From Candidatus Fervidifonticultor secundus (GTDB taxonomy: Bacteria > Sysuimicrobiota > Sysuimicrobiia > Sysuimicrobiales > Humicultoraceae): 64,000 bases of DNA. Position 1 is the first letter of the stretch, and the number at the start of each line of letters is the position of its first letter. Below the pieces are notes generated by a model. It saw only the letters and a list, made by a program, of their open reading frames with translations. It made no database searches and had not been told where the DNA came from. This document shows positions 12,941 to 41,287 of this stretch, piece by piece. Position numbers and translations under genes: made by a program. Location of the stretch: assembly GCA_031459385.1 (NCBI GenBank), contig JAVKIP010000001.1, positions 128,001 through 192,000 of the forward strand. The letters are read 5' to 3'.

Positions 12941-13255
12941 CTACACGATCTGGTGCTCCTCGGCGAACATCGCGCCGGACTCGGCGCAGAAGTTCGTCAG
13001 GTCGATCATCACCTCGCGGCCAGCGGGCGTGGCGAGCGCGGCTGTGAAGGCCTCCTGCGAGTCGAAGTGCAGCTCCGCGATCCCCTGGACCAGCGGCTCG
13101 CCTCGCGGGGCGCCGGTGACGACGTTGACGGTGTAGCGCCGTAGCCCCTGGAGCCGCTCACGCACCAGCGGCGCGTGCACGTCGAGCCAGTAGCGCTTGA
13201 ACTGCTCGGGGCTCTGCCCGCTCTTGCCGCGCAGCCAGACCAGGACCTTGAACAC
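12941..13255 (-). CDS. EthD-like (dimeric alpha-beta barrel) protein
   Basis: GTG start with GGAGG SD; F.RYW...HAPLV...GLRRY and GIAELHFDS motifs. Confidence 0.82.
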   Translation of the reverse strand: MFKVLVWLRGKSGQSPEQFKRYWLDVHAPLVRERLQGLRRYTVNVVTGAPRGEPLVQGIAELHFDSQEAFTAALATPAGREVMIDLTNFCAESGAMFAEEHQIV

Positions 13256-13278
13256 CGCGCACCTCCCGTCCCGCCGGC

Positions 13279-14094
13279 TCAGGCCGGCGCCTTGCCACGC
13301 ATCTCGGCCACTGCGGCCGCGCCCATGACGTGGAAGCCGCTGTCCACGAACAGCGTGTTGCCGGTGACCGAGCGCGCCAGATCGCTGGCCAGGAAGACCG
13401 CCGCGTCGCCGACGTCCTCCTGCGAGATGTTGCGTCGCAGCGGCGCCACCTCCTCGACGACGTCGCGGAAGGCCGTGATGCCTCTGACGGCACTGGCGGC
13501 CAGGGTGCGTAGCGGGCCGGCAGAGATGGCGTTGACGCGGATGTTCGCCGGCCCCAGTTCGGCGGCCAGGTAGCGCACCTCGCACTCGAGGGCCGCCTTG
13601 GCGATCGCCATGACCCCGTAGGAGGGCACCACCGCCTCCACGGCGTTGTACGTCAGGGTCAGGATGGTCCCGCCCCCTGCGGCTTCCAGCAGTCCCCGTG
13701 CGGCGCCGGCCACGCGGAGCAGCGAGTAGGCGCTGATCTCCAGGGCCTGCGCGTAGCCCTGGCGCGAGATCTGGGTGAACGGCCGCGCCAGCTCCTCGCG
13801 TCCGGCGAACGCCAGGCAGTGGACCAGCACGTCGAGGGCGCCCCACTGCGCGGCCAGGCCTGCGAAGACCGCGTCGATCTGCTGGTCGCTCTGGACGTCG
13901 CAGGGGAAGATGGGGAACCGCTCTGCGCCGCCCAGTTCGGTGAGCAGCTCGACCAGGTTCTCCTTGAGCCGGTCGCTCTGGTAGGTGAACGCCAGCTGGG
14001 CGCCCTCGCGGTGGAACGCCCGGGCGATACCCCAGGCGATACTGCGCTTGTTGGCGACCCCCATGATCAGGGCCCGTTTGCCGTGCAGGAGCAC
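13279..14094 (-). CDS. fabI: Enoyl-ACP reductase FabI
   Basis: GVANKRSIAWGIA, Y..M..AKAALE, VNAISAGPLRTLA. Confidence 0.95.
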   Translation of the reverse strand: MLLHGKRALIMGVANKRSIAWGIARAFHREGAQLAFTYQSDRLKENLVELLTELGGAERFPIFPCDVQSDQQIDAVFAGLAAQWGALDVLVHCLAFAGREELARPFTQISRQGYAQALEISAYSLLRVAGAARGLLEAAGGGTILTLTYNAVEAVVPSYGVMAIAKAALECEVRYLAAELGPANIRVNAISAGPLRTLAASAVRGITAFRDVVEEVAPLRRNISQEDVGDAAVFLASDLARSVTGNTLFVDSGFHVMGAAAVAEMRGKAPA

Positions 14095-14291
14095 AGGACA
14101 CCTCGCCTCGTGGGGTGCAGACCGGGTTATCGGCTTCGGGATCGCCGGGCAGCGTCCCTCTCCAGTCTCGCCGCAGGTCTCGCGCGACGCGCGGGAGGAA
14201 GCCTCGGGCAGGCGGCGCGCCTGCGGTCGTGCCGGATGGTCCGCAGCCGCGCTCCGTCAACGCAGACGCGGCCTGCGGCGCGGGCGGCAGG

Positions 14292-15051: not shown

Positions 15052-15891
15052 TTACTTCTCGATCGGCACGTTCACCAGGCTGCCGTACTCGGTCCACGAG
15101 CCGTCGTAGTTGCGCACGCGGGGATAGCCCAGCAGCTCCCGCAACACGAACCATGTGTGCGACGAGCGCTCGCCGATGCGGCAGTAGGCGATGACCTCTT
15201 TGTCGGGTGTGATGCCCTGACTCTCGTAGAGCGCGCGCAGCTCCTCGGGCGCCTTGAAGGTCCCGTCTTCGCGGAGCGCCATGCCCCAGGGGACGTTCTT
15301 CGCACCGGGGATGTGCCCGCCGCGCTGGGCGCCTTCCTGCGGCAGGTTCTCGGGCGCCAGCAGTTCGCCTGCGTATTCCTTCGGCGAGCGCACGTCCACC
15401 AGGCCGTGCCCTGGCTGGCCGACGCGCTGGAGCACGTAGTCGCGCAGGGCCCGGATCTCGGTGTCGGGCACTGCGGCGCGGTACCGGGTGCGCGGGTAGG
15501 CCGGCACCTCCCGCACGAGCGGCCGACCTTCGTCGCTCCACTTCTTGCGCCCGCCGTTCATGATCCGCACGTCGCCGTGCCCGTAGTACCGAAAGATCCA
15601 GTAGGCCCACGCAGCGAACCAGTTGTTGTTGTCGCCGTAGAAGACCACGGTGTGGTCGTTGCCCACCCCGGCCTCGCCCAACAGGGTCTCGAACTGAGCC
15701 TGCGACGGCAAATCGCGCCGCAGGGGGTCGGCCAGGTCGACTTTCCAGTCCAGGTTGAGCGCGCCGGGGATGTGCCCCTGCGCGTAGACCTCGCGGTCCA
15801 CCGAGACCTCGACGATGCGCAGGCCCGGATCGCGCAGGTGCTCGGCGACCCACCCGGTCTCCACCAGCACATCAGGCTTGGCGTATCCCAT
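15052..15891 (-). CDS. Tandem-domain rhodanese / thiosulfate sulfurtransferase
   Basis: GHIPGA twice, active-site [17 protein letters not shown] signature. Confidence 0.93.
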
Positions 15892-15970
15892 CGCGATCCC
15901 CCCGTCGGTCTGTGCTCCACGCCTGCGCGACGCCCGGGAGCCCCCGGGTCCCTGCGCGGCGTCGGCGGGC

Positions 15971-16189
15971 TCAGCCGTCCACCGGCGTCGCCGCGGCGAT
16001 GTGGTGGTAGTGGATCGTCTGGCGCGCGCCCGGCGTCCCCTCGGGCTCGACGGTAACCACTGCGCCGTCCAGGGCGTCCAGCACGCCCAGCACGCGGCCC
16101 GTGACGATCGGGCCGCCCGGGGCTCCCGGCACCAGCGCCAGCGTCGCGCGACGCCCGACCAGTCGCTGCAGCTCCTCTCTGGTGACCAT
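15971..16189 (-). CDS. Small 72-aa hypothetical protein, possibly Sm/LSm (Hfq-like) fold
   Basis: ATG at 16189 with GGAGGGAGGG SD; co-oriented between the ATP-grasp and rhodanese genes. The fold call is inference from pattern. Confidence 0.7.
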
Positions 16190-16215
16190 GCCCTCCCTCC
16201 CCCGGCCGCGGCCGC

Positions 16216-17229
16216 CTATGCCGTCACGGGAGATGCGATGACCCCGAGCCGCCTCTCGAGGAAGTCCGCAAACACGGCGTAGGGATCGAAGCCCACGACC
16301 CGACGGGCGTCGGTCACGAAATTGGACAGCACGTTGATGTCGTAGTAGTACCGGCGACCGTCGCGCTGGCTCACCAGGTACTCGATCCCGCCAACATCCA
16401 GCCGGGCCGCCGCGGCGATCTGCTGCACCTCGTCGAGCACCTGCGCCGGCGGCCGGTAGCCCTCGACGCGCAGGTTGGTCTTCGGCAGGTCTACCGGGCA
16501 GAGGTCCACCGCCGACTTGGCGGTCTGTGGCGGTGCCGCCGGCGCCCCCGTCCCGTCGGTCTGGCAGATGTCGGCCGGGCAGAGGTTGAACCCCGCCCCG
16601 GGATCCGGGAAGACCTTGATGGCGTACAGGAACCGGCCGTCGAGCACCTCGACCCGCACGATGTGCCCGTCCGCCGGCGCATGGTACTCCTGCACGAGGG
16701 CCACTCGGTCGATGCCCAGGTCGAGTGTCCCCGCCCGCGCAGCGGCGTCCAGGTCCTCCCAGCGGTCGAAGCGGCGGATCCCGGCGCCGCTTCCGCCGAT
16801 GTTGGGCTTCACCAGCACGGGGACGGCGAGTTCGCGGGCGGCGGCAGCGGCCTGTCGGGCGGTATTCACCACCCGGGTGCGGGGATGCGGCAGGCCCAGC
16901 CGCGCCAGCAAGGCCACCTGCGCGGCCTTGGAGAGTTCCAGGGCGAACGCCGCCGCCCCGTTCACCACCGGGACTCCCACGGACTCCAGCCACTGCAGGT
17001 AGGCGAGGGACGCGAAGATCGCGTGGCCGTGGCCCCGCACGTAGGCCGAGGGGCTCATGCGGTTGACGACGAGGTCGTAGGGCGCCCGCCGGTCGGCCGG
17101 GTCGAACGCCAGGTCTGCGGCGTGAATCCGCGCATACGGCACGCCCCGGCGGTCGAGCTCCGCGAAGAGCGGCACGAACCATTCGGGGTGTTCGTAGAGA
17201 ATGCCCAGTCGCGGCCAGGTGGTGCTCAT
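16216..17229 (-). CDS. ATP-grasp ligase (RimK/glutathione synthetase-like)
   Basis: VLVKPNIGGSGAGI, LVQEY, GIEYL, YDIN..SNF ATP-grasp motifs; FNLCPADIC segment. Confidence 0.85.
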   Translation of the reverse strand: MSTTWPRLGILYEHPEWFVPLFAELDRRGVPYARIHAADLAFDPADRRAPYDLVVNRMSPSAYVRGHGHAIFASLAYLQWLESVGVPVVNGAAAFALELSKAAQVALLARLGLPHPRTRVVNTARQAAAAARELAVPVLVKPNIGGSGAGIRRFDRWEDLDAAARAGTLDLGIDRVALVQEYHAPADGHIVRVEVLDGRFLYAIKVFPDPGAGFNLCPADICQTDGTGAPAAPPQTAKSAVDLCPVDLPKTNLRVEGYRPPAQVLDEVQQIAAAARLDVGGIEYLVSQRDGRRYYYDINVLSNFVTDARRVVGFDPYAVFADFLERRLGVIASPVTA

Positions 17230-17322
17230 CGCTGTCCTCCCTCATCGGCGGGCGCCCGGCGGCCGGTAAGGCCAGGTGCGCCCGCAGCGCACGTCGTGCT
17301 CGAGGTGTGTGGTGACTTCGGT

Positions 17323-17424
17323 CTACGCCGGGTGAGCAGGCGAAGGCCTGGGAGCCTTCGCCCGAGGACAGATGCAGTCCCGAGGGAGGGGGAGGTGTCG
17401 TGCGTCCTGCCACGTCGCTCGCAT
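17323..17424 (-). CDS. Putative Cys-containing leader peptide, copy 1 (MRATWQDARHLPLPRDCICPRAKAPRPSPAHPA)
   Basis: ATG 11 nt after a good -10 box; PRDCICP matches PRECICP in the second leader at 18661; 9-bp hairpin at 17339-17362. Confidence 0.6.
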   Translation of the reverse strand: MRATWQDARHLPLPRDCICPRAKAPRPSPAHPA

Positions 17425-17435
17425 GTTTGCTGCTG

Positions 17436-17464
17436 ATCCTAGCACACCGGCTGCCTCCGCGCAA
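17436..17464 (-). promoter_or_regulatory. Sigma70-type promoter driving the leader peptide / ATP-grasp operon
   Basis: TTGCGC-N17-TAGGAT with extended TG on the minus strand. Confidence 0.65.
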
Positions 17465-17556
17465 TCCACGCGCGGAGTGCGGAGTATAGAAGGGAGTCCA
17501 TCTCCCGTCTCCGTCACATCCGAGGGAACGGCACAGGCAGGCGCGAACCCTGGGGC

Positions 17557-18576
17557 GTGGACCGACGGTGGCTGCGCCTCGCGGCGTGGGGGGCCGGAAT
17601 CCTCGTCGTCTGGTGGGGCCTCGGGCAGTTGCGGGTGCTCACCGGCACGGCGGTGGTGGTCCTCATCATCACCTTCCCGATCTACCCGCTGGTGGACTGG
17701 CTGGAGCGCCGGGGCCTGGGACGCGCCGCAGCGGCTGCCCTGGTGCTGCTGGCAGTGCTGGCCGGGCTGGCCCTCGGCCTGGCCGTGATCATCCCCTGGA
17801 TCGTCGATCAGGTGCACGTGCTGATCCGCATCGCGCCGTCCGGGATCCGGGCGGTTACCGACCTGCTGGCGCGCTGGCAGATGCAGGTCGCTGAGCCGAC
17901 CTTCCCCGCGTTGCTGCGGACGGCCTGGGAGCGCGCCGGCGAGACCGCGGTCAGCGCGGCCAACGGCCTGGCGTCGCGTCTGGTGAACACCGTGGTGGGC
18001 TGGCTGGGCCAGCTCTACCTGGTGCTGCTGCTGCCCTTCATCATCTACTTCGTCCTGCTCGACTACCGGCGGGTGCGCGACGCCGGGCTGCGGCTGCTGC
18101 CGGCGGACGCGCGTCCGCGGGTCGAGGGGCTGCTCGAGACGCTGACGCGCACCCTGCGCTGGGGGCTGTGGGCGCAGGTCGTGGTGAGCGCTGTCGTGGG
18201 CGGGCTGACAGCCGTGGGGCTCGCGCTGGCCGGCGTGCCGGGCCCGCTCGCCATCGGACTGTTCGCCGGGGTGGCCGAGGCGGTCCCCTACATCGGCGGG
18301 TTCGCCACGTACGCCGTGGCCCTGCTGGCGGCGATCCCGCAGGGCGGCGCTGCCTGGATGTGGGCCGTGGTGGTGGTCACCGCGGTGAAGCTGCTCTCCA
18401 ACGTGCTGGTGCCCCTCGTGCTGGGGAAGTTCACGCAGACCCACCCGCTGGCCATCATCGCGGCGCTCCTGGCCCTGGGGCAGCTCTTCGGCCTGGTGGG
18501 CATGTTCTTCGCCGTGCCGGTGGTGGTCATCATCCGGGAGGTGCTGGCGTGGTGGCAGGCCGCGCGGGCGACCTGA
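17557..18576 (+). CDS. AI-2E (UPF0118/PerM) family transporter
   Basis: YPLVDWLER, YFVLLDY, VPYIG, HPLAII.AL..G..LFG.VGM..AVP motifs. Confidence 0.88.
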   Translation: MDRRWLRLAAWGAGILVVWWGLGQLRVLTGTAVVVLIITFPIYPLVDWLERRGLGRAAAAALVLLAVLAGLALGLAVIIPWIVDQVHVLIRIAPSGIRAVTDLLARWQMQVAEPTFPALLRTAWERAGETAVSAANGLASRLVNTVVGWLGQLYLVLLLPFIIYFVLLDYRRVRDAGLRLLPADARPRVEGLLETLTRTLRWGLWAQVVVSAVVGGLTAVGLALAGVPGPLAIGLFAGVAEAVPYIGGFATYAVALLAAIPQGGAAWMWAVVVVTAVKLLSNVLVPLVLGKFTQTHPLAIIAALLALGQLFGLVGMFFAVPVVVIIREVLAWWQAARAT

Positions 18577-18660
18577 GCCGCGCGACGCCCCCTTGCGGCA
18601 GGGCGGGCCATGTGGTAGGTACGAGGTAACCGCCGTGCCGGCGGTCTGCGAGGTTCGCCG

Positions 18661-18738
18661 ATGAGCAGGGCGAGAGCCAGCCGCTGGAACGCCGCGAGTC
18701 GTCCGCGCGAGTGCATCTGTCCGTCGCGAAGGCGATAG
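18661..18738 (+). CDS. Putative Cys-containing leader peptide, copy 2 (MSRARASRWNAASRPRECICPSRRR)
   Basis: ATG with GAGG SD; PRECICP motif; 9-bp hairpin 18725-18746 containing the stop; TTGCGG-N17-TAGGTA promoter-like sequence at 18593-18621. Confidence 0.6.
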   Translation: MSRARASRWNAASRPRECICPSRRR

Positions 18739-18864
18739 CCTTCGCGTTCCCCGCGTAGTCCAGTCATCTGCTGCTTTACTGCCGGGTCGGGGTGCCCGGA
18801 GGTGTGCACCGGTTCCGGGCGTGTCCGGCCCCTGGTGCCGAGAGGACGCCGGAGGTGGCGTGCG

Positions 18865-19971
18865 ATGGAGAAGCGTCGTGACCTGCAGGTGCCTGTCGCC
18901 GGTGCCGACCCCTCGTGCTGCCCGCCGGACGATGCGGAGGTGGTCAGCGACGGCTTCATGCCGCGGCGCGCGTTCCTGGCCAGGCTGTCGCAGGTTGGGC
19001 TGGCCGCGGCCGGGTGGGCCTGGCTGGCCGACCGCCCCGCGGCGGCGCAGGGCCGGCGGCGCGTGCGGCTGGCGTTCTGCAGTCAACTGCTCTGCATCAT
19101 TCCCTACGAGGTCGCCCGGCGGCAGGGCTACTACGCAGAGGAGGGTCTCGATGTCGAGCTCGTGTACTTCCGGGGCGGCAGCGCGGCCATACAGGCGCTG
19201 GTGGGCGGCGCGGTCGAGTACGCAGCCACGTCGTTCGACGTGGTGCTGGCTGCGGCGAGCCGCGGCGCCGACGTGGTGCGCTTCTTCACCACGGGCCGGC
19301 TGCCGCTGTTCGCCCTGGCCGTCGCGCCGCACGCGGCAGAGGCGGTGCGCGGGCTGCCGGACCTGCGCGGGCGCACGGTCGGCGTCTCCGCGCTTGGCAA
19401 CGCTGACCACCTGCTGGCTGGCTACCTGCTCCAGCGCGCGGGCGTGCGGCCGACGGCGGTGCAGTTCGCCGTGCTCGGGCCCAACCTCTTCGAGGCGCTG
19501 CGCGCCGGGCACGTCGACGCCGGCATGGTGCAGGAGCCCGCGGCCACGCTGCTGGAGCAGCGTGGCGGGCGCGTGCTCGTCAACCTCATGGATCTGGCGC
19601 AGGCCCGGCGCTACCTGGGCGGGCCGTACGAGTTCATGGGGGTCGCCGTGCGCGCGCCCGAGTGGCAGGAGCGGCAGGCCGAGATGCGGGCGCTGGCGCG
19701 GGCGCTGGAGCGCGCGCTGCGGTTCATCCACTACGGCACGCCGCGGCTGGTGATCGACGCGCTGCCGGCCGAACTGATCGCGGGCGGCGACCGCGCGCTG
19801 CTGGAGCAGGTGCTGGCCCGGCACCGGCGGTCGCTCTACCCGCAGGATGGTCGCATCGACCTGGCCGCGGCGCGCCGGGTCGTCGCCGTGCAGCAGCAGG
19901 CCGGGGCGCCTGTAGCCGCAGACCTCGCGCGGCTGCTCAACCCGGCCATCGCGGGGGCGGCCAGCCCGTGA
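18865..19971 (+). CDS. NitT/TauT (sulfonate/taurine-type) ABC substrate-binding protein, Tat-exported
   Basis: ATG with GGAGG SD; PRRAFL twin-arginine motif; GYYAEEGLDVELV..RGG..AIQAL.GG.V and DLRGRTVGV. Confidence 0.85.
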   Translation: MEKRRDLQVPVAGADPSCCPPDDAEVVSDGFMPRRAFLARLSQVGLAAAGWAWLADRPAAAQGRRRVRLAFCSQLLCIIPYEVARRQGYYAEEGLDVELVYFRGGSAAIQALVGGAVEYAATSFDVVLAAASRGADVVRFFTTGRLPLFALAVAPHAAEAVRGLPDLRGRTVGVSALGNADHLLAGYLLQRAGVRPTAVQFAVLGPNLFEALRAGHVDAGMVQEPAATLLEQRGGRVLVNLMDLAQARRYLGGPYEFMGVAVRAPEWQERQAEMRALARALERALRFIHYGTPRLVIDALPAELIAGGDRALLEQVLARHRRSLYPQDGRIDLAAARRVVAVQQQAGAPVAADLARLLNPAIAGAASP

Positions 19972-20759
19972 TGGTCGGGGGCGTGGCGCTGGAGATCCGC
20001 GACCTGACCGTCGCCTACGGGCACCACGAGGTGCTGCGCGATTTGAACCTCGTGGTCCCCGAGGGACAGTTCGTGGGCCTGGTCGGTCCGTCGGGCTGCG
20101 GCAAGAGCACGCTGCTGCGGGCCGTGGCGGGGCTGGTCCCGCCGGCCCGCGGCACGCTGGCGGTGTTCGGGCGCGCGGTGACCGGGTGCGCCCCGGAGGT
20201 CGGCATGCTCTTCCAGGAAGACGCGTTGCTGCCGTGGCGCACCGCACGGGACAACGTGGCCCTCGGCCTGCGGTTTCGCGGGATGGCGGCGGGCGATGCT
20301 CGCGCCGCAGCGCGGGCCTGGCTCGAGCGCCTGGGACTGGGTGCGTTCGCTGACCACTTCCCGCACGAGCTCTCCGGCGGCATGAAGAAGCGCGTGGCGC
20401 TGGCCCAGGTGCTCGCGCCGCAGCCGCGCCTGCTGTTGATGGACGAGCCGTTCGCGAGCCTCGACGCCATCGTGCGGACGGTGCTGGAGGCGGAGTTCGC
20501 GCGGCTGGTGCGCGCCGAGGGCCTCACCGTCGTCCTGGTGACGCACGACCTGGAGGAGGCGCTGCTGCTCGCAGACCGCGTGGCCGTCCTCTCGGCCGGG
20601 CCGGCTGCGCGCATCCTGCGCGTCTACGACGTGCCGTTTCCGCACCCGCGAGACCCGGTGCACCTGCGCGGCGCGCCGGTCTTCGGCCGGCTGCTGGCGC
20701 GGCTCTGGGGCGACCTGCGCGCGGAAGTGGGCCGGATGGGCTGGGAGGTGCCGGCATGA
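19971..20759 (+). CDS. NitT/TauT ABC ATP-binding protein
   Basis: GPSGCGKST, LLPWRT, LSGGMKKR, LLMDEPF. Confidence 0.92.
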   Translation: MVGGVALEIRDLTVAYGHHEVLRDLNLVVPEGQFVGLVGPSGCGKSTLLRAVAGLVPPARGTLAVFGRAVTGCAPEVGMLFQEDALLPWRTARDNVALGLRFRGMAAGDARAAARAWLERLGLGAFADHFPHELSGGMKKRVALAQVLAPQPRLLLMDEPFASLDAIVRTVLEAEFARLVRAEGLTVVLVTHDLEEALLLADRVAVLSAGPAARILRVYDVPFPHPRDPVHLRGAPVFGRLLARLWGDLRAEVGRMGWEVPA

Positions 20760-21652
20760 GGCGCCTGGGCGCGCTCGTGGCGCTGCTGGCGGTGTGGGAA
20801 GCGGTCGTGCGGATGGGGTGGGTCAGCCCGCTGCTGGTCCCGCCGCCGGTCGTGGTGGCCCGCGTCGTCGCCGACCTCGTGCGGGGCGGTGCGCTGTGGG
20901 GGCACGTCGGTGCGACACTGCTGGAGGCGCTGGGCGGCCTGGGGCTGGGCGTCGCCGCGGGCGGGCTCCTCGGGCTGGCCGCGGGCCTGCTGCCGCCGGT
21001 CGCGGACCTGCTGCAGCCGGCCATGGCCGTGCTGAACGCCGTGCCGCGGGTGATCCTGGCGCCGCTGCTGGTGATCTGGTTCGGGATCGGCGTGGCGTCG
21101 AAGATCGCGCTGAGCTTCCTCCTCGTGGCCGTCACCGTGTTCTTCGCCGTGTACGGCGGCATCCGCGAAACCGACCCCCGGCTGGTGGAACGGGTGCGCA
21201 CGCTGGGGGGCGATGCGTGGGCCGTGGTGCGCGAGGTCTACGCCCCGTCGGTGGGCGCCTGGGTGGTGAGCAGCCTCAAGCTGGCCGTCGGCTTCGCGTT
21301 CACGGGCGCGGTCGTGGGCGAGTTCGTCGCGTCCAGCCGTGGCCTGGGCTACCTGCTGTCGTTTGCCCAGAGCACCTACAACGCGGCCCTCACCGTGGCG
21401 CTCATCGCGCTGGTGATGGCGGTGACCCTGACGCTGTTCGCGGGGCTGGAGCGCGGGGAGCGCCGGCTGCTCCGATGGAAGCACGGTGCGCGGCCTCGAC
21501 GCGCGCCAGGATCCCGCGCCGCGGCGCCCGTCTCGGCACGTGAGACGGTGCCCGCCCCCGCGTCCGGCGAAGGAGGAGCCCGCACGCAGCCCGAAGCCCC
21601 TGGAGGTTTTTCCGATCGGCCGCCCGCGACCCGGGCGCAGGAGGTGGGGTGA
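20756..21652 (+). CDS. NitT/TauT ABC permease
   Basis: PLLVIWFGIG, GAVVGEF...RGLG; low-complexity C-terminal tail. Confidence 0.88.
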   Translation: MRRLGALVALLAVWEAVVRMGWVSPLLVPPPVVVARVVADLVRGGALWGHVGATLLEALGGLGLGVAAGGLLGLAAGLLPPVADLLQPAMAVLNAVPRVILAPLLVIWFGIGVASKIALSFLLVAVTVFFAVYGGIRETDPRLVERVRTLGGDAWAVVREVYAPSVGAWVVSSLKLAVGFAFTGAVVGEFVASSRGLGYLLSFAQSTYNAALTVALIALVMAVTLTLFAGLERGERRLLRWKHGARPRRAPGSRAAAPVSARETVPAPASGEGGARTQPEAPGGFSDRPPATRAQEVG

Positions 21653-24786: not shown

Positions 24787-24904
24787 GGAGGACGCAGGTA
24801 CCGCGCGGGTGGCCGGCACGCGGCGGCCGGTGCGACGCGCCACCCTGGCGGATGCGGCACGCCAGCCTGTGGGCGTGCCGCGGCTTCGGACACTGGAGGA
24901 CGGG

Positions 24905-25990
24905 ATGAGCATGTACACCCACGACGCGATGCTCGCCGAGCTGCGCGCGATCGCCGCATCGGCCCGGCACGTGACGATCGACCGCGAGCAACTCGCCCGC
25001 GTGGCGGCGGTGCTGCGGGGCCGGCTGGGCGTCGACGACTTCCACATCCGCCGCGACTGTCCGTCGCTGGCGCCGGCGGAGGCGCTGCAGTTCTCCCTGG
25101 TGGCCGGGACCCACAACTTCCTCATCTGGCAGCGGACGTCCGGCGGCGGGGTCGAGCCCTGGCGCGCCTGCGTCGACGGCGAGGAGCGCTACGGGGCGCC
25201 GGCGATCTACGCCTGCCACCTGCGCGCCCTCCGCACGGGCCGGAACATCCTGGACGCGGACTACCTGGTGTCGATGACGCTGGCCGACATGGAGGACTAC
25301 TACCGCGACGAGCGCACCGGCGCGGTGACCCTGCAGTTCCTCCCACAGCGGCTGGCCAAGTTCCACGAGGTGGGCCGCGTGCTCCGCGAGCGCTACAGCG
25401 GCTCGTTCGTCACGCTGCTGGAGCGCGCCGAAGGCTGGCTGTTCCGGCCCGATGGCCAGGGGATCGCGCAGCGGCTCCTGGAGGACTTCCCGCTGTCGTA
25501 CGGCGACTGGCCGTTCTGCAAGCTGGTGATGGTCACCCTGGGCAACCTCTACGCCGACCGGGAGCACCTGGGGCCGGCGGGGACACCCGCCCGCGCGCTG
25601 GTGGACCTGCGGGACCCCGAGCACCTCGAGGTCGGGGCCGACTACTACCGACCGTTCTTCCTGTACCGGGTCGGCGTACTGCGGGTGAGCGAGGCGCTGC
25701 GGGCACGACTGCAGCAGCGGGTCCTGGTCGAGCGCGACAGCCCCATGGAGCGAGAATACCGCGCCTGGACGATCCTGGCAGCGCGGGAACTGGCCGAGCG
25801 CCTGGGCGTGCTGCCGCACGAACTGGCGAAGGAAACGTGGGCCATGGCCTTCATGCGCTGTCGGCCCTGTCACCCCGGGGTCGATCCGCAGGTGGTGCCG
25901 TGCGACTACCGGGAGACCTGCCACGCGTATACACGGGACCCGGCGCTCATGGACGCACTCTGGCCCCTGGTGCACACGCCGTGGTACTGA
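24905..25990 (+). CDS. Queuosine salvage family (DUF2419/Qng1-like) glycosylase paralogue A with C-terminal Cys cluster
   Basis: ATG with GGAGG SD; HVTID, NF.IW, ILDA.YL, EVGRVL.ERY.G, F.K, ADY, E.RA motifs in DUF2419 order; CRPC-x10-C-x5-C tail. Confidence 0.7.
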   Translation: MSMYTHDAMLAELRAIAASARHVTIDREQLARVAAVLRGRLGVDDFHIRRDCPSLAPAEALQFSLVAGTHNFLIWQRTSGGGVEPWRACVDGEERYGAPAIYACHLRALRTGRNILDADYLVSMTLADMEDYYRDERTGAVTLQFLPQRLAKFHEVGRVLRERYSGSFVTLLERAEGWLFRPDGQGIAQRLLEDFPLSYGDWPFCKLVMVTLGNLYADREHLGPAGTPARALVDLRDPEHLEVGADYYRPFFLYRVGVLRVSEALRARLQQRVLVERDSPMEREYRAWTILAARELAERLGVLPHELAKETWAMAFMRCRPCHPGVDPQVVPCDYRETCHAYTRDPALMDALWPLVHTPWY

Positions 25991-41211: not shown

Positions 41212-41287
41212 GGGCCCTTAGCTCAGCAGGCAGAGCGGCGGGCTTTTAACCCGCGCGTCGGGGGTTCGAGTCCCTCAGGGCCCACCA
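41212..41287 (+). tRNA. tRNA-Lys (anticodon TTT)
   Basis: 76 nt cloverleaf: acceptor GGGCCCT/AGGGCCC, D arm GCTC/GAGC, anticodon arm GCGGG-CTTTTAA-CCCGC, T loop TTCGAGT, encoded CCA. Confidence 0.97.

Follow-up and report, generated by a model that had tools for sequence, protein, structure and literature searches.

A phylum-wide leader with an invariant Cys-Ile-Cys core and an adjoining hairpin precedes sulfur-metabolism genes in Candidatus Sysuimicrobiota

Classical transcription attenuators such as trpL, hisL and leuL carry codons for the pathway's end product in a leader that lies beside segment 1 of a set of mutually exclusive helices, and TnaC and SpeFL are arrest peptides that sense metabolites. 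Leader peptides with Cys codons have been predicted before the cys and cbs operons of Mycobacterium, Propionibacterium and Bifidobacterium; no obvious terminator was described for them, and the involvement of Rho was raised as a possibility (Seliverstov et al. 2005, PMC1262725). In mycobacterial leaderless small open reading frames (sORFs) with polycysteine tracts, stalled ribosomes block a duplex that hides the Shine-Dalgarno sequence of the next gene, and this duplex was proved by compensatory mutations (Canestrari et al., 10.1101/834739). The preprint also reports six mycobacterial loci that respond to cysteine limitation (the 'Cys ribulon'; Ms5788A/Rv0815A), one target operon that encodes a 159-amino-acid hydrophobic protein and then the thiosulfate sulfurtransferase CysA2, and a family criterion of at least two consecutive Cys codons. 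Here, we describe a leader element found twice, as copies A and B, in a 64,000-nucleotide stretch of Candidatus Fervidifonticultor secundus (the window, G000:C1:128001-192000), which belongs to a draft genome of 3.3 Mb with 72% G+C. Each copy consists of a short upstream open reading frame (uORF) with two Cys codons in the shared pattern CCN CGN GAN TGC ATC TGT CC, followed by a hairpin.

The element is a real, phylum-wide family of translated leaders for sulfur genes. We consider it probable, with reservations given below, that it is an attenuator, a leader whose action depends on the ribosome and through which several sulfur-metabolism operons respond to cysteinyl-tRNA supply. We infer that cysteine is the signal, that starvation induces the operons, and how the output step, including the action of the hairpin, proceeds. 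In the proposed mechanism, a short open reading frame at or near the 5' end of the mRNA would carry the invariant sensor P-R-x-Cys(UGY)-Ile(AUC)-Cys(UGU), with a 9-bp hairpin next to it, the GCG(A/G)(A/G)GG core of which would start 3-4 nt past the core motif. When charged tRNA-Cys is scarce, the ribosome would wait at the Cys codons and, with the first of them (Cys1) in its A site, its leading edge would stand just short of the hairpin. The waiting ribosome would cover the core and the preceding pyrimidine-rich codons and keep other ribosomes off the hairpin; the downstream RNA could then adopt an 'on' fold and the operon would be expressed. With plentiful cysteine, the ribosome would run through and a repressing 'off' fold would form. 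The sensor would be constant, and the 'expression platform' would differ by operon class. In the ATP-grasp class, the core UGCAUCUGUCC would form a direct duplex with GGACAGAUGCA at the ribosome-binding site; in the DUF4395 leaders and a number of others, an alternative partner of the 5' arm and loop could mask a Shine-Dalgarno region that resembles the 5' arm; and in the sulfite-reductase class, a second copy of the hairpin would give a classical set of 1:2/3:4 versus 2:3 helices. An initial annotation of the window had proposed a cysteine-leader attenuator family; its conservation, translation signature, hairpin and sulfur regulon were borne out by the present analysis, but a general masking of ribosome-binding sites found no statistical support.

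The leader element occurs throughout the phylum and beyond chance. The exact 11-mer TGCATCTGTCC was present only at A and B in the 3.3-Mb genome, as were the full hairpin pattern and a GCGTAG.CC..AGTCA block. When the 11-mer was combined with GCGAAGG at a distance of 0-10 nt, matches were obtained in 12 of 61 related genomes and none with the control pattern. The wobble-relaxed pattern CCNCGNNNNTGYATHTGYCC was found in 28 of 34 family genomes (52 places, one control match) and, over the whole class, in 75 of 94 genomes (149 places, three control matches). This 94-genome set is the class, which here equals order and phylum, Candidatus Sysuimicrobiota (formerly CSP1-3), and its counts include the unpublished genomes G010 and G019. 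The 20-nt degenerate pattern CCNCGNNNNTGYATCTGTCC, with ATC and TGT fixed, matched 141 places in 73 of the 94 genomes (71 of 92 without the two unpublished ones), and its control matched none. A covariance model, R1, built from 39 leaders, identified four copies in this genome at E<=3e-11, the next best match having E=0.025, and detected the element in 81 of 94 genomes; relatives contained up to five copies per genome. Two of the four copies lie outside the window. All four stand 5' of the downstream gene and in its orientation, which excludes a randomly dispersed repeat.

A global scan with the core and both hairpin arms, covering 185,579 species with one genome each, returned 64 loci. Sixty-two of them were in metagenome-assembled genomes (MAGs) with CSP1-3/Sysuimicrobiota-type or unresolved labels. 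The informative MAG titles were 'Armatimonadetes bacterium CSP1-3', Candidatus Fervidifonticultor, Candidatus Geohabitans and Candidatus Calidihabitans, and NCBI taxonomy places Candidatus Fervidifonticultor within Candidatus Sysuimicrobiota. The two remaining loci, both in Achromobacter (L140, L152) and the sole matches outside MAGs, were treated as chance matches, since they used the longest allowed gaps and had no P-R codons before the 11-mer. The motif had not been recognized as a named element, and no Rfam family matched it. At the gathering threshold, Rfam matched only one tRNA in the whole window, and at E<=10 the interval 17150-18950 gave chance-level matches only, far under the gathering scores. 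The matched tRNA gene lies at 41212-41284 (+) and scored 66.9 bits. In literature on cysteine-responsive uORF attenuators, on Cys-codon leaders and on this phylum, the last represented by abstracts, neither the motif nor RNA regulation in the phylum was found.

The two Cys codons are required by CCNCGNNNNTGYATCTGTCC itself; independent support for them came from 21 copies that were missed by the patterns and recovered by R1. TGY ATC TGT was kept in 21 of these 21 variants, 18 had S, L, R, T, F or A in place of the Pro after C-I-C, and P-R was lost in three. The invariant unit is therefore Cys-Ile-Cys. Among the 141 CCNCGNNNNTGYATCTGTCC places, the Cys1 codon was TGC in 114 and TGT in 27. The second Cys codon (Cys2) was TGT in 141 of the 149 CCNCGNNNNTGYATHTGYCC places, and several of the other eight were not leader-like. 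In this genome, the 691 confident genes contain 2017 Cys codons, of which 192 are TGT, and both tRNA-Cys genes have the anticodon GCA; the codon at Cys2 is thus rare and is read by wobble. An RNA partner common to the leaders that could account for the fixed AUC and UGU was not found.

The leader reading frame is translated, as judged from its conservation signature in 62 leaders that were less than 80% identical upstream of the core. An ATG in the Cys frame, 6-25 codons upstream and with no stop between, was present in 56 of the 62, compared with 4 and 5 of 62 in the other two frames. The Cys codons are invariant and the ATG is conserved in frame with them, in agreement with the proposal of the initial annotation. 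Directly before the core, CCN CGN was found in 59 of 63 distinct matches of a scan that did not require it. In 61 non-redundant leaders, the third position of the Pro codon was A in 1, C in 22, G in 28 and T in 10, all four bases occurred at the third position of the Arg codon, and both codons varied at the third base only. Such period-3 variation in the P-R codons implies selection on the peptide or on its decoding. The following codon, x, was NAN in 60 of 61 leaders and encoded Q, E, D, N or K. The peptides fell into the types ..PRPR[DN]CICPRAKA..PSP.., ..RPRECICPSRRR (ending at the stop codon) and ..Y[AT]PR[QK]CICP[GR]RR..AFA... Across these types, only the core is shared, and both the N- and C-terminal parts are unrelated.

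Of 59 non-redundant leaders, 19 had an extended -10 element, TGnTAnnnT, that ended 9-13 nt before the ATG; the control windows contained none. A Shine-Dalgarno-like motif preceded the uORF in only 13 of the 59. From the -10 placement and the rarity of Shine-Dalgarno motifs, many uORFs, including that of A, probably start a few bases from the 5' end. Copy B differs in having a longer 5' part, of about 39 nt from its promoter-like site to the ATG, and GAGG before the ATG.

The pairing pattern shows that the hairpin forms in RNA. When the two copies, or all types, were aligned with MAFFT, the 5' arm was shifted by one base and RNAalifold then returned no structure; the misplacement was solved by an anchored count and by an alignment of 39 sequences restricted to spacer 3. 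In that alignment, 96.9% of cells of the 9-bp stem were paired, as against 42-61% with slid partners. A·C never occurred at the pair 33-50, which was G·U in 22 sequences, G-C in 13 and A-U in 4; another stem pair was C-G in 21 and U-G in 16. The outermost pair alternated between G-C (22) and C-G (6). Of 55 leaders, 41 had the stem core 3 nt from the core motif and 13 had it 4 nt away; the two arm cores were 6-10 nt apart, save for a single leader with 31 nt. In translation, the stem takes two frames, AKA..PSP with the 4-nt spacer and RRR..AFA with the 3-nt spacer, and its sequence is therefore not conserved for coding. A further candidate, a stem closing the Cys codons (CCNCGN with the spacer), was 65% paired against 23-68% with slid partners and was rejected as unsupported. 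Given the usual ribosome footprint, which reaches about 15 nt from the first base of the P site, the ribosome would end just before the stem when Cys1 occupies the A site and would have begun to open it when Cys2 does.

The regulon was surveyed by comparing the first same-strand open reading frames (ORFs) downstream of each leader with Pfam. In 84 of 93 leader loci, the first Pfam-matched gene belonged to DUF4395, ATP-grasp/rhodanese, rhodanese/Sulf_transp, NMT1-ABC, sulfite reductase, Cys_Met_Meta_PP, SBP_bac_5 or OsmC. A set of 49 loci comprised 14 with DUF4395 (a thioredoxin gene usually being next), 12 with ATP-grasp, six with rhodanese (three of them followed by Sulf_transp/YeeE), four with NMT1 and ABC parts, three with Cys_Met_Meta_PP, two with sulfite reductase, three with SBP_bac_5 and five unmatched, two of which were chance pattern matches. 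The 20 loci found by the model only comprised seven DUF4395, five rhodanese, two sulfite reductase, one NMT1, one ATP-grasp, three OsmC and one unmatched, and a set of 24 loci comprised eight DUF4395, eight ATP-grasp, three rhodanese, one SBP_bac_5, one Sulf_transp and three unmatched. Relatives therefore have further copies, and these stand upstream of sulfur genes. Across the phylum, DUF4395 was the gene most often found behind the leader, and it is accordingly predicted to act in sulfur or thiol metabolism. The third copy in this genome, with TGT ATC TGT and a GTG start, precedes the only DUF4395 gene of the genome, with thioredoxin next. The recurrence of the trio of ATP-grasp, 72-aa ORF and rhodanese behind the leader, which was seen in several genera, suggests an undescribed sulfur-linked ligase pathway. 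At loci L161, L166 and L172, in one family of the phylum, an OsmC-like gene stood behind the leader, followed by an ORF of 270-305 aa without a Pfam match.

Candidate alternative helices were found in several operon classes. In ATP-grasp leaders, the sequence between the Shine-Dalgarno motif and the AUG was GGACAGAUGCA or the G·U-compatible GGAUAGAUGCA/GGGCAGAUGCA, the complement of the core UGCAUCUGUCC, and this pairing was recovered by RNAalifold. Against a background of 691 ribosome-binding sites of this genome (mean -12.5, standard deviation 2.7 kcal/mol), the duplex between core and binding site was among the best 1% in 10 of 72 leaders and among the best 10% in 16 of 72, the remaining leaders being background-like. 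The best-1% duplexes belonged to nine ATP-grasp leaders and one DUF4395 leader (L141); as the ATP-grasp leaders are orthologous, these counts are not independent. In DUF4395, several rhodanese and SBP_bac_5 leaders, the 5' arm and loop had a long downstream partner, at -23 to -39 kcal/mol. In 49 leaders, this pairing reached z<-2 in 23 and z<-3 in 16. The partner covaried with the loop sequence and was likewise a complement of the Shine-Dalgarno region, itself similar to the 5' arm. The sulfite-reductase leaders have a second copy of the hairpin, with which the 3' arm can pair (z of -4.4 and -2.5 for loop plus 3' arm), and the arrangement could provide a 1:2/3:4 versus 2:3 helix set. The 50 nt past the hairpin were C-rich and G-poor (C 0.38, G 0.25; C exceeded G by more than 0.1 in 33 of 51 leaders), so that Rho-dependent polarity remains a possible output. 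The stalled ribosome might also affect the stability of the mRNA. The core was also considered as a general anti-binding-site element, with a best downstream duplex of -15.8 kcal/mol on average versus -14.9 for the reversed motif. This general rule was rejected because the shuffle test described below was null, the reversed motif performed similarly and only 10 of 72 leaders stood out.

Several observations weigh against coupling to cysteinyl-tRNA supply. A plain 'hungry codon' model leaves the fixed AUC, the equally fixed rare UGU and the conservation of P-R-x unaccounted for, and there are only two Cys codons, which are never adjacent. Copies A and B themselves are without a clear expression platform or an outstanding pairing of any of the three kinds. 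The core-to-binding-site duplex of A reached only -14.5 kcal/mol (24th percentile of genomic ribosome-binding sites) and that of B -11.1, and no alternative hairpin partner was detected for either window copy (z of -0.70 for A and +1.06 for B). Over 54 leaders, the segment covered by the ribosome paired with the binding site no better than dinucleotide shuffles did (mean z +0.09). In constrained folding with the ribosome at Cys2, Shine-Dalgarno accessibility rose in 10 leaders and fell in 10. With the ribosome held at Cys1, predicted accessibility was 0.345 versus about 0.30 in transit (13 up, 3 down), a small shift with a Wilcoxon p=0.013 on related sequences. A consensus scan of 17150-18950 found no terminator-like sites, relatives not having been scanned systematically. 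The fourth copy (..APRQCICT.., with Thr for Pro and only TTG or GTG starts) precedes a 179-aa ORF without a Pfam or NCBIfam match and then folP, folB and folK; it is the only copy that lacks an evident sulfur link. The controlled proteins were modestly poor in sulfur amino acids (1.8% versus 2.5%), and in Met only; a first comparison had looked strong before the background was changed. Sulfur economy was not used as evidence, because the effect was modest and limited to Met against the cleaner background of 800 genes with strong Shine-Dalgarno motifs. Finally, the stretch was found in no RNA run, and one metatranscriptome run of the same study contained next to none of the sampled words.

The constraint on the peptide bears on an alternative in which the nascent P-R-x-C-I-C stalls on a small molecule in the exit tunnel, such as free cysteine, a thiol or a sulfur compound, with the hairpin and helices reading the stall and tRNA charging not being the signal. 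We regard such a metabolite-sensing arrest peptide as possible but rather unlikely. It would account for the retention of P-R in 59 of 63 unbiased matches with free third positions, the limitation of x to Q/E/D/N/K, the presence of only two Cys codons with Ile always between them, and the fixed distance of 3-4 nt between the core motif and the hairpin. A sensor that reads only the peptide would, however, have no need of fixed synonymous positions (AUC, UGU), a residue other than Pro (S, L, R, T, F or A) may follow C-I-C, as in 18 of 21 variants, and the ligand is purely hypothetical. Conservation at the nucleotide level, synonymous sites included, would suit an RNA-only element, a riboswitch or protein-binding RNA in which UGCAUCUGUCC and the hairpin are functional and the reading frame is incidental; the preservation of the hairpin in two reading frames and its G·U pairs and covariation point the same way. 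This explanation is improbable nonetheless. The in-frame ATG (56 of 62, versus 4-5 of 62 in other frames) and the variation of the Pro and Arg codons at the third position alone argue against it, the core is not closed by a stem (the proposed P1 being 65% paired versus 23-68% slid), Rfam has no matching family, and a ligand pocket would have to be built from a very small conserved part.

A small CxC protein acting in trans, for instance a micropeptide with a metal or redox role or a precursor that the adjacent ATP-grasp enzyme modifies, is suggested by the ATP-grasp gene behind A and in many relatives and by a weak, sub-threshold NCBIfam likeness of that enzyme to ATP-grasp peptide maturases, among 51 weak matches. 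It is very improbable, as the same core stands before unrelated operons that have no ATP-grasp gene, only about seven residues are conserved while the termini and even the C-terminal reading frame differ, and no peptide family in NCBIfam matched. That the hairpin is instead a DNA operator, an inverted repeat to which a transcription factor binds as a roadblock in the leader, is scarcely credible to us. The sequence of the inverted repeat is conserved and the adjacent 11-mer invariant, but the arm cores are 6-10 nt apart and once 31 nt, and the G·U pairs (22 of 39 at one pair and U·G 16 of 39 at another) would be mismatches on the other DNA strand; both features argue against an operator. The element is, moreover, always co-oriented with the downstream gene. 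Coupling to cysteinyl-tRNA supply thus stays our preferred explanation. A bolder proposal, which we put forward tentatively and consider unlikely, is a self-contained ribosome sensor in which the nascent peptide and the wobble-read rare UGU together would program a signal-dependent arrest. Such a sensor might respond not just to tRNA charging but to free cysteine, a different thiol or a sulfur compound, and one sensor would be wired to at least three platforms. If true, this would be a 'peptide riboswitch' family that governs the sulfur regulon of a whole phylum and is reused in the manner of riboswitch aptamers.

The layout of the window copies, together with the positions of the two other copies in the genome, is given in the table. 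The two short ORFs with PR[D/E]CICP, the codons TGC ATC TGT CC and the GCGAAGGC/GCCTTCGC hairpin were all present where the initial annotation had placed them. The GCGAAGG core lies 4 nt after the core motif in A and 3 nt in B, so the stem of B is read in another frame than that of A. From the position of its candidate -10 hexamer, uORF A would be nearly leaderless. The promoter-like TTGCG[C/G]-N17-TAGG.. hexamers are present at both sites but fell below the threshold of the consensus scan, which called no promoter-like sites. The GCGTAG.CC..AGTCA block, common to A and B, is missing from the B-type leaders of two sister genomes, and in relatives of type A the region of the block folds into a small hairpin (GUCCGG..CCGGAC), the loop of which contains the stop codon of the uORF. 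Between the divergently placed leaders A and B lies an AI-2E-family transporter gene, 17557..18576 (+), that has no leader of its own and ends with a stop codon 17 nt before the promoter-like site of B.

Behind A, the order of ATP-grasp gene, small protein gene and rhodanese gene was confirmed by Pfam, NCBIfam and translation. The assignment of a sulfonate/taurine-type ABC importer to the genes behind B likewise held, with an NMT1/THI5-type binding protein, an ATPase and a permease recognized by Pfam; the start of the first gene had to be corrected, from 18866 to the ATG at 18865, its product being the NMT1-type binding protein. Two further ORFs of the window are unrelated to the leaders: one at 12941-14260 (-), of 439 aa, has a C-terminal EthD domain, and the other, at 24809-25990 (+), a queuosine-salvage (Q_salvage) domain.

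Table. Positions of the leader features and the genes behind them, in window coordinates unless a contig is given
Feature	Position	Strand	Details
uORF A	17424..17323	-	33 codons + TAG; peptide MRATWQDARHLPLPRDCICPRAKAPRPSPAHPA, then stop
Promoter-like site of A	17436..17464	-	TTGCGC-N17-(TG)TAGGAT; -10 hexamer ends 11 nt before ATG
Sensor core of A	17366..17385	-	CCT CGG GAC TGC ATC TGT CC = P R D C I C P
11-mer TGCATCTGTCC in A	17376..17366	-	
Hairpin of A	17362..17339	-	GGCGAAGGC-loop-GCCTTCGCC; stem (17362) 3 nt past core motif, GCGAAGG core 4 nt past
GCGTAG.CC..AGTCA block of A	17308-17330	-	TAG of the block = uORF stop codon
Ribosome-binding region behind A	17227..17243	-	Shine-Dalgarno GAGGGAGGA, GGACAG (complements core CUGUCC), ATG of ATP-grasp gene
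ATP-grasp, RimK/LysX-like	17229..16216	-	First gene behind A; Pfam; below all NCBIfam cut-offs
72-aa ORF	16189..15971	-	Second gene behind A; no family match
Tandem rhodanese	15891..15052	-	Third gene behind A; operon span 15052..17229
Promoter-like site of B	18593..18621	+	TTGCGG-N17-(TG)GTAGGTA; 39 nt before ATG; GAGG 9 nt before ATG
uORF B	18661..18738	+	25 codons + TAG; peptide MSRARASRWNAASRPRECICPSRRR, then stop; stop codon inside hairpin loop
Sensor core of B	18703..18722	+	CCG CGC GAG TGC ATC TGT CC = P R E C I C P
11-mer TGCATCTGTCC in B	18712..18722	+	
Hairpin of B	18725..18746	+	CGCGAAGGC-GATA-GCCTTCGCG; stem (18725) 2 nt past core motif, GCGAAGG core 3 nt past
GCGTAG.CC..AGTCA block of B	18753-18772	+	
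Ribosome-binding region behind B	18851..18867	+	Shine-Dalgarno GGAGGT, ATG (18865) of binding-protein gene
NMT1/THI5-type (sulfonate/taurine-like) binding protein	18865..19971	+	First gene behind B; Pfam
ABC ATPase	19662..20759 (listed ORF)	+	Domain from residue 125; listed start may not be true start
ABC permease	20756..21652	+	Third gene behind B; operon span 18865..21652
Third copy (locus L007/L088)	G000:C4:1908-2501; copy at G000:C4:2448-2501	-	Before DUF4395 gene
Fourth copy (locus L008, 1486-1538)	G000:C11:49463-49515	+	Before 179-aa ORF

The leader adds a cis-regulatory family that is absent from Rfam and specific to an uncultured phylum, and R1, with four clean matches in this genome and the element detected in 81 of 94 genomes, is precise enough to serve as an annotation model. 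Cysteine sensing by leader ORFs would be extended beyond Actinobacteria, to a system with an unusually rigid sensor and interchangeable outputs. The sulfur regulon that it delimits provides functional leads, namely DUF4395 with thioredoxin, the RimK/LysX-like ATP-grasp protein with its 72-aa partner and rhodanese, the OsmC-like protein and the 179-aa ORF. The unchanging Ile codon, the equally constant rare UGU and the conservation of P-R-x pose concrete puzzles concerning the ribosomal sensing of amino-acid supply.

Like the classical attenuators, the element is a translated leader with codons for the amino acid of the controlled pathway, here Cys codons before sulfur and cysteine genes, and a 1:2/3:4 versus 2:3 layout like theirs is predicted for the sulfite-reductase leaders. 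Unlike those attenuators, it has no terminator-like site with a T-run in the window, the structures downstream vary among leaders, and its output may act on translation. With TnaC and SpeFL it shares a conserved short peptide context at the presumed stall site and the position of the leader before a metabolic operon; it differs from them in that the Cys codons themselves are invariant and synonymous sites are fixed, and a ligand is hypothetical. In the translational attenuation of ermCL and the cat leader, the signal is an antibiotic in the exit tunnel (10.1101/834739), whereas here it is presumed to be the cysteine supply. As in the predicted actinobacterial leaders, Cys codons occur here without an obvious terminator, and the 50 nt past the hairpin are C-rich and G-poor; as those leaders are described in PMC1262725, however, Cys runs lie near the stop codon and there is no conserved hairpin, in contrast to the fixed motif and hairpin found here.

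The closest resemblance is to the mycobacterial sORFs. In mycobacteria, a short ORF with Cys codons stands at the 5' end of the mRNA, as is probable for many of the leaders here, and in both systems the device is shared by several cysteine or sulfur loci per genome (four here). The Cys codons of Ms5788A pair with the Shine-Dalgarno or start region, as established by mutation, and a like pairing is predicted here for the ATP-grasp class. The targets overlap as well, with a small hydrophobic protein and a thiosulfate sulfurtransferase in mycobacteria and DUF4395 and rhodanese here; the preprint does not name DUF4395, and its equation with the hydrophobic protein is tentative. In contrast to the mycobacterial sORFs, the present leaders have two non-adjacent Cys codons, always as Cys-Ile-Cys, within an invariant P-R-x-C-I-C with fixed synonymous sites, and a conserved hairpin at a fixed distance of 3-4 nt, and they belong to another, uncultured phylum. 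Most of them also lack a pairing of the Cys codons with the binding site, and other alternative helices are used. In NCBIfam at E<=1, no peptide model matched uORF A or B, Ms5788A itself not having been compared directly. Since it has no consecutive Cys codons and no NCBIfam match, the leader is not a member of the mycobacterial family, but by analogy it most likely works like the mycobacterial Cys sORFs.

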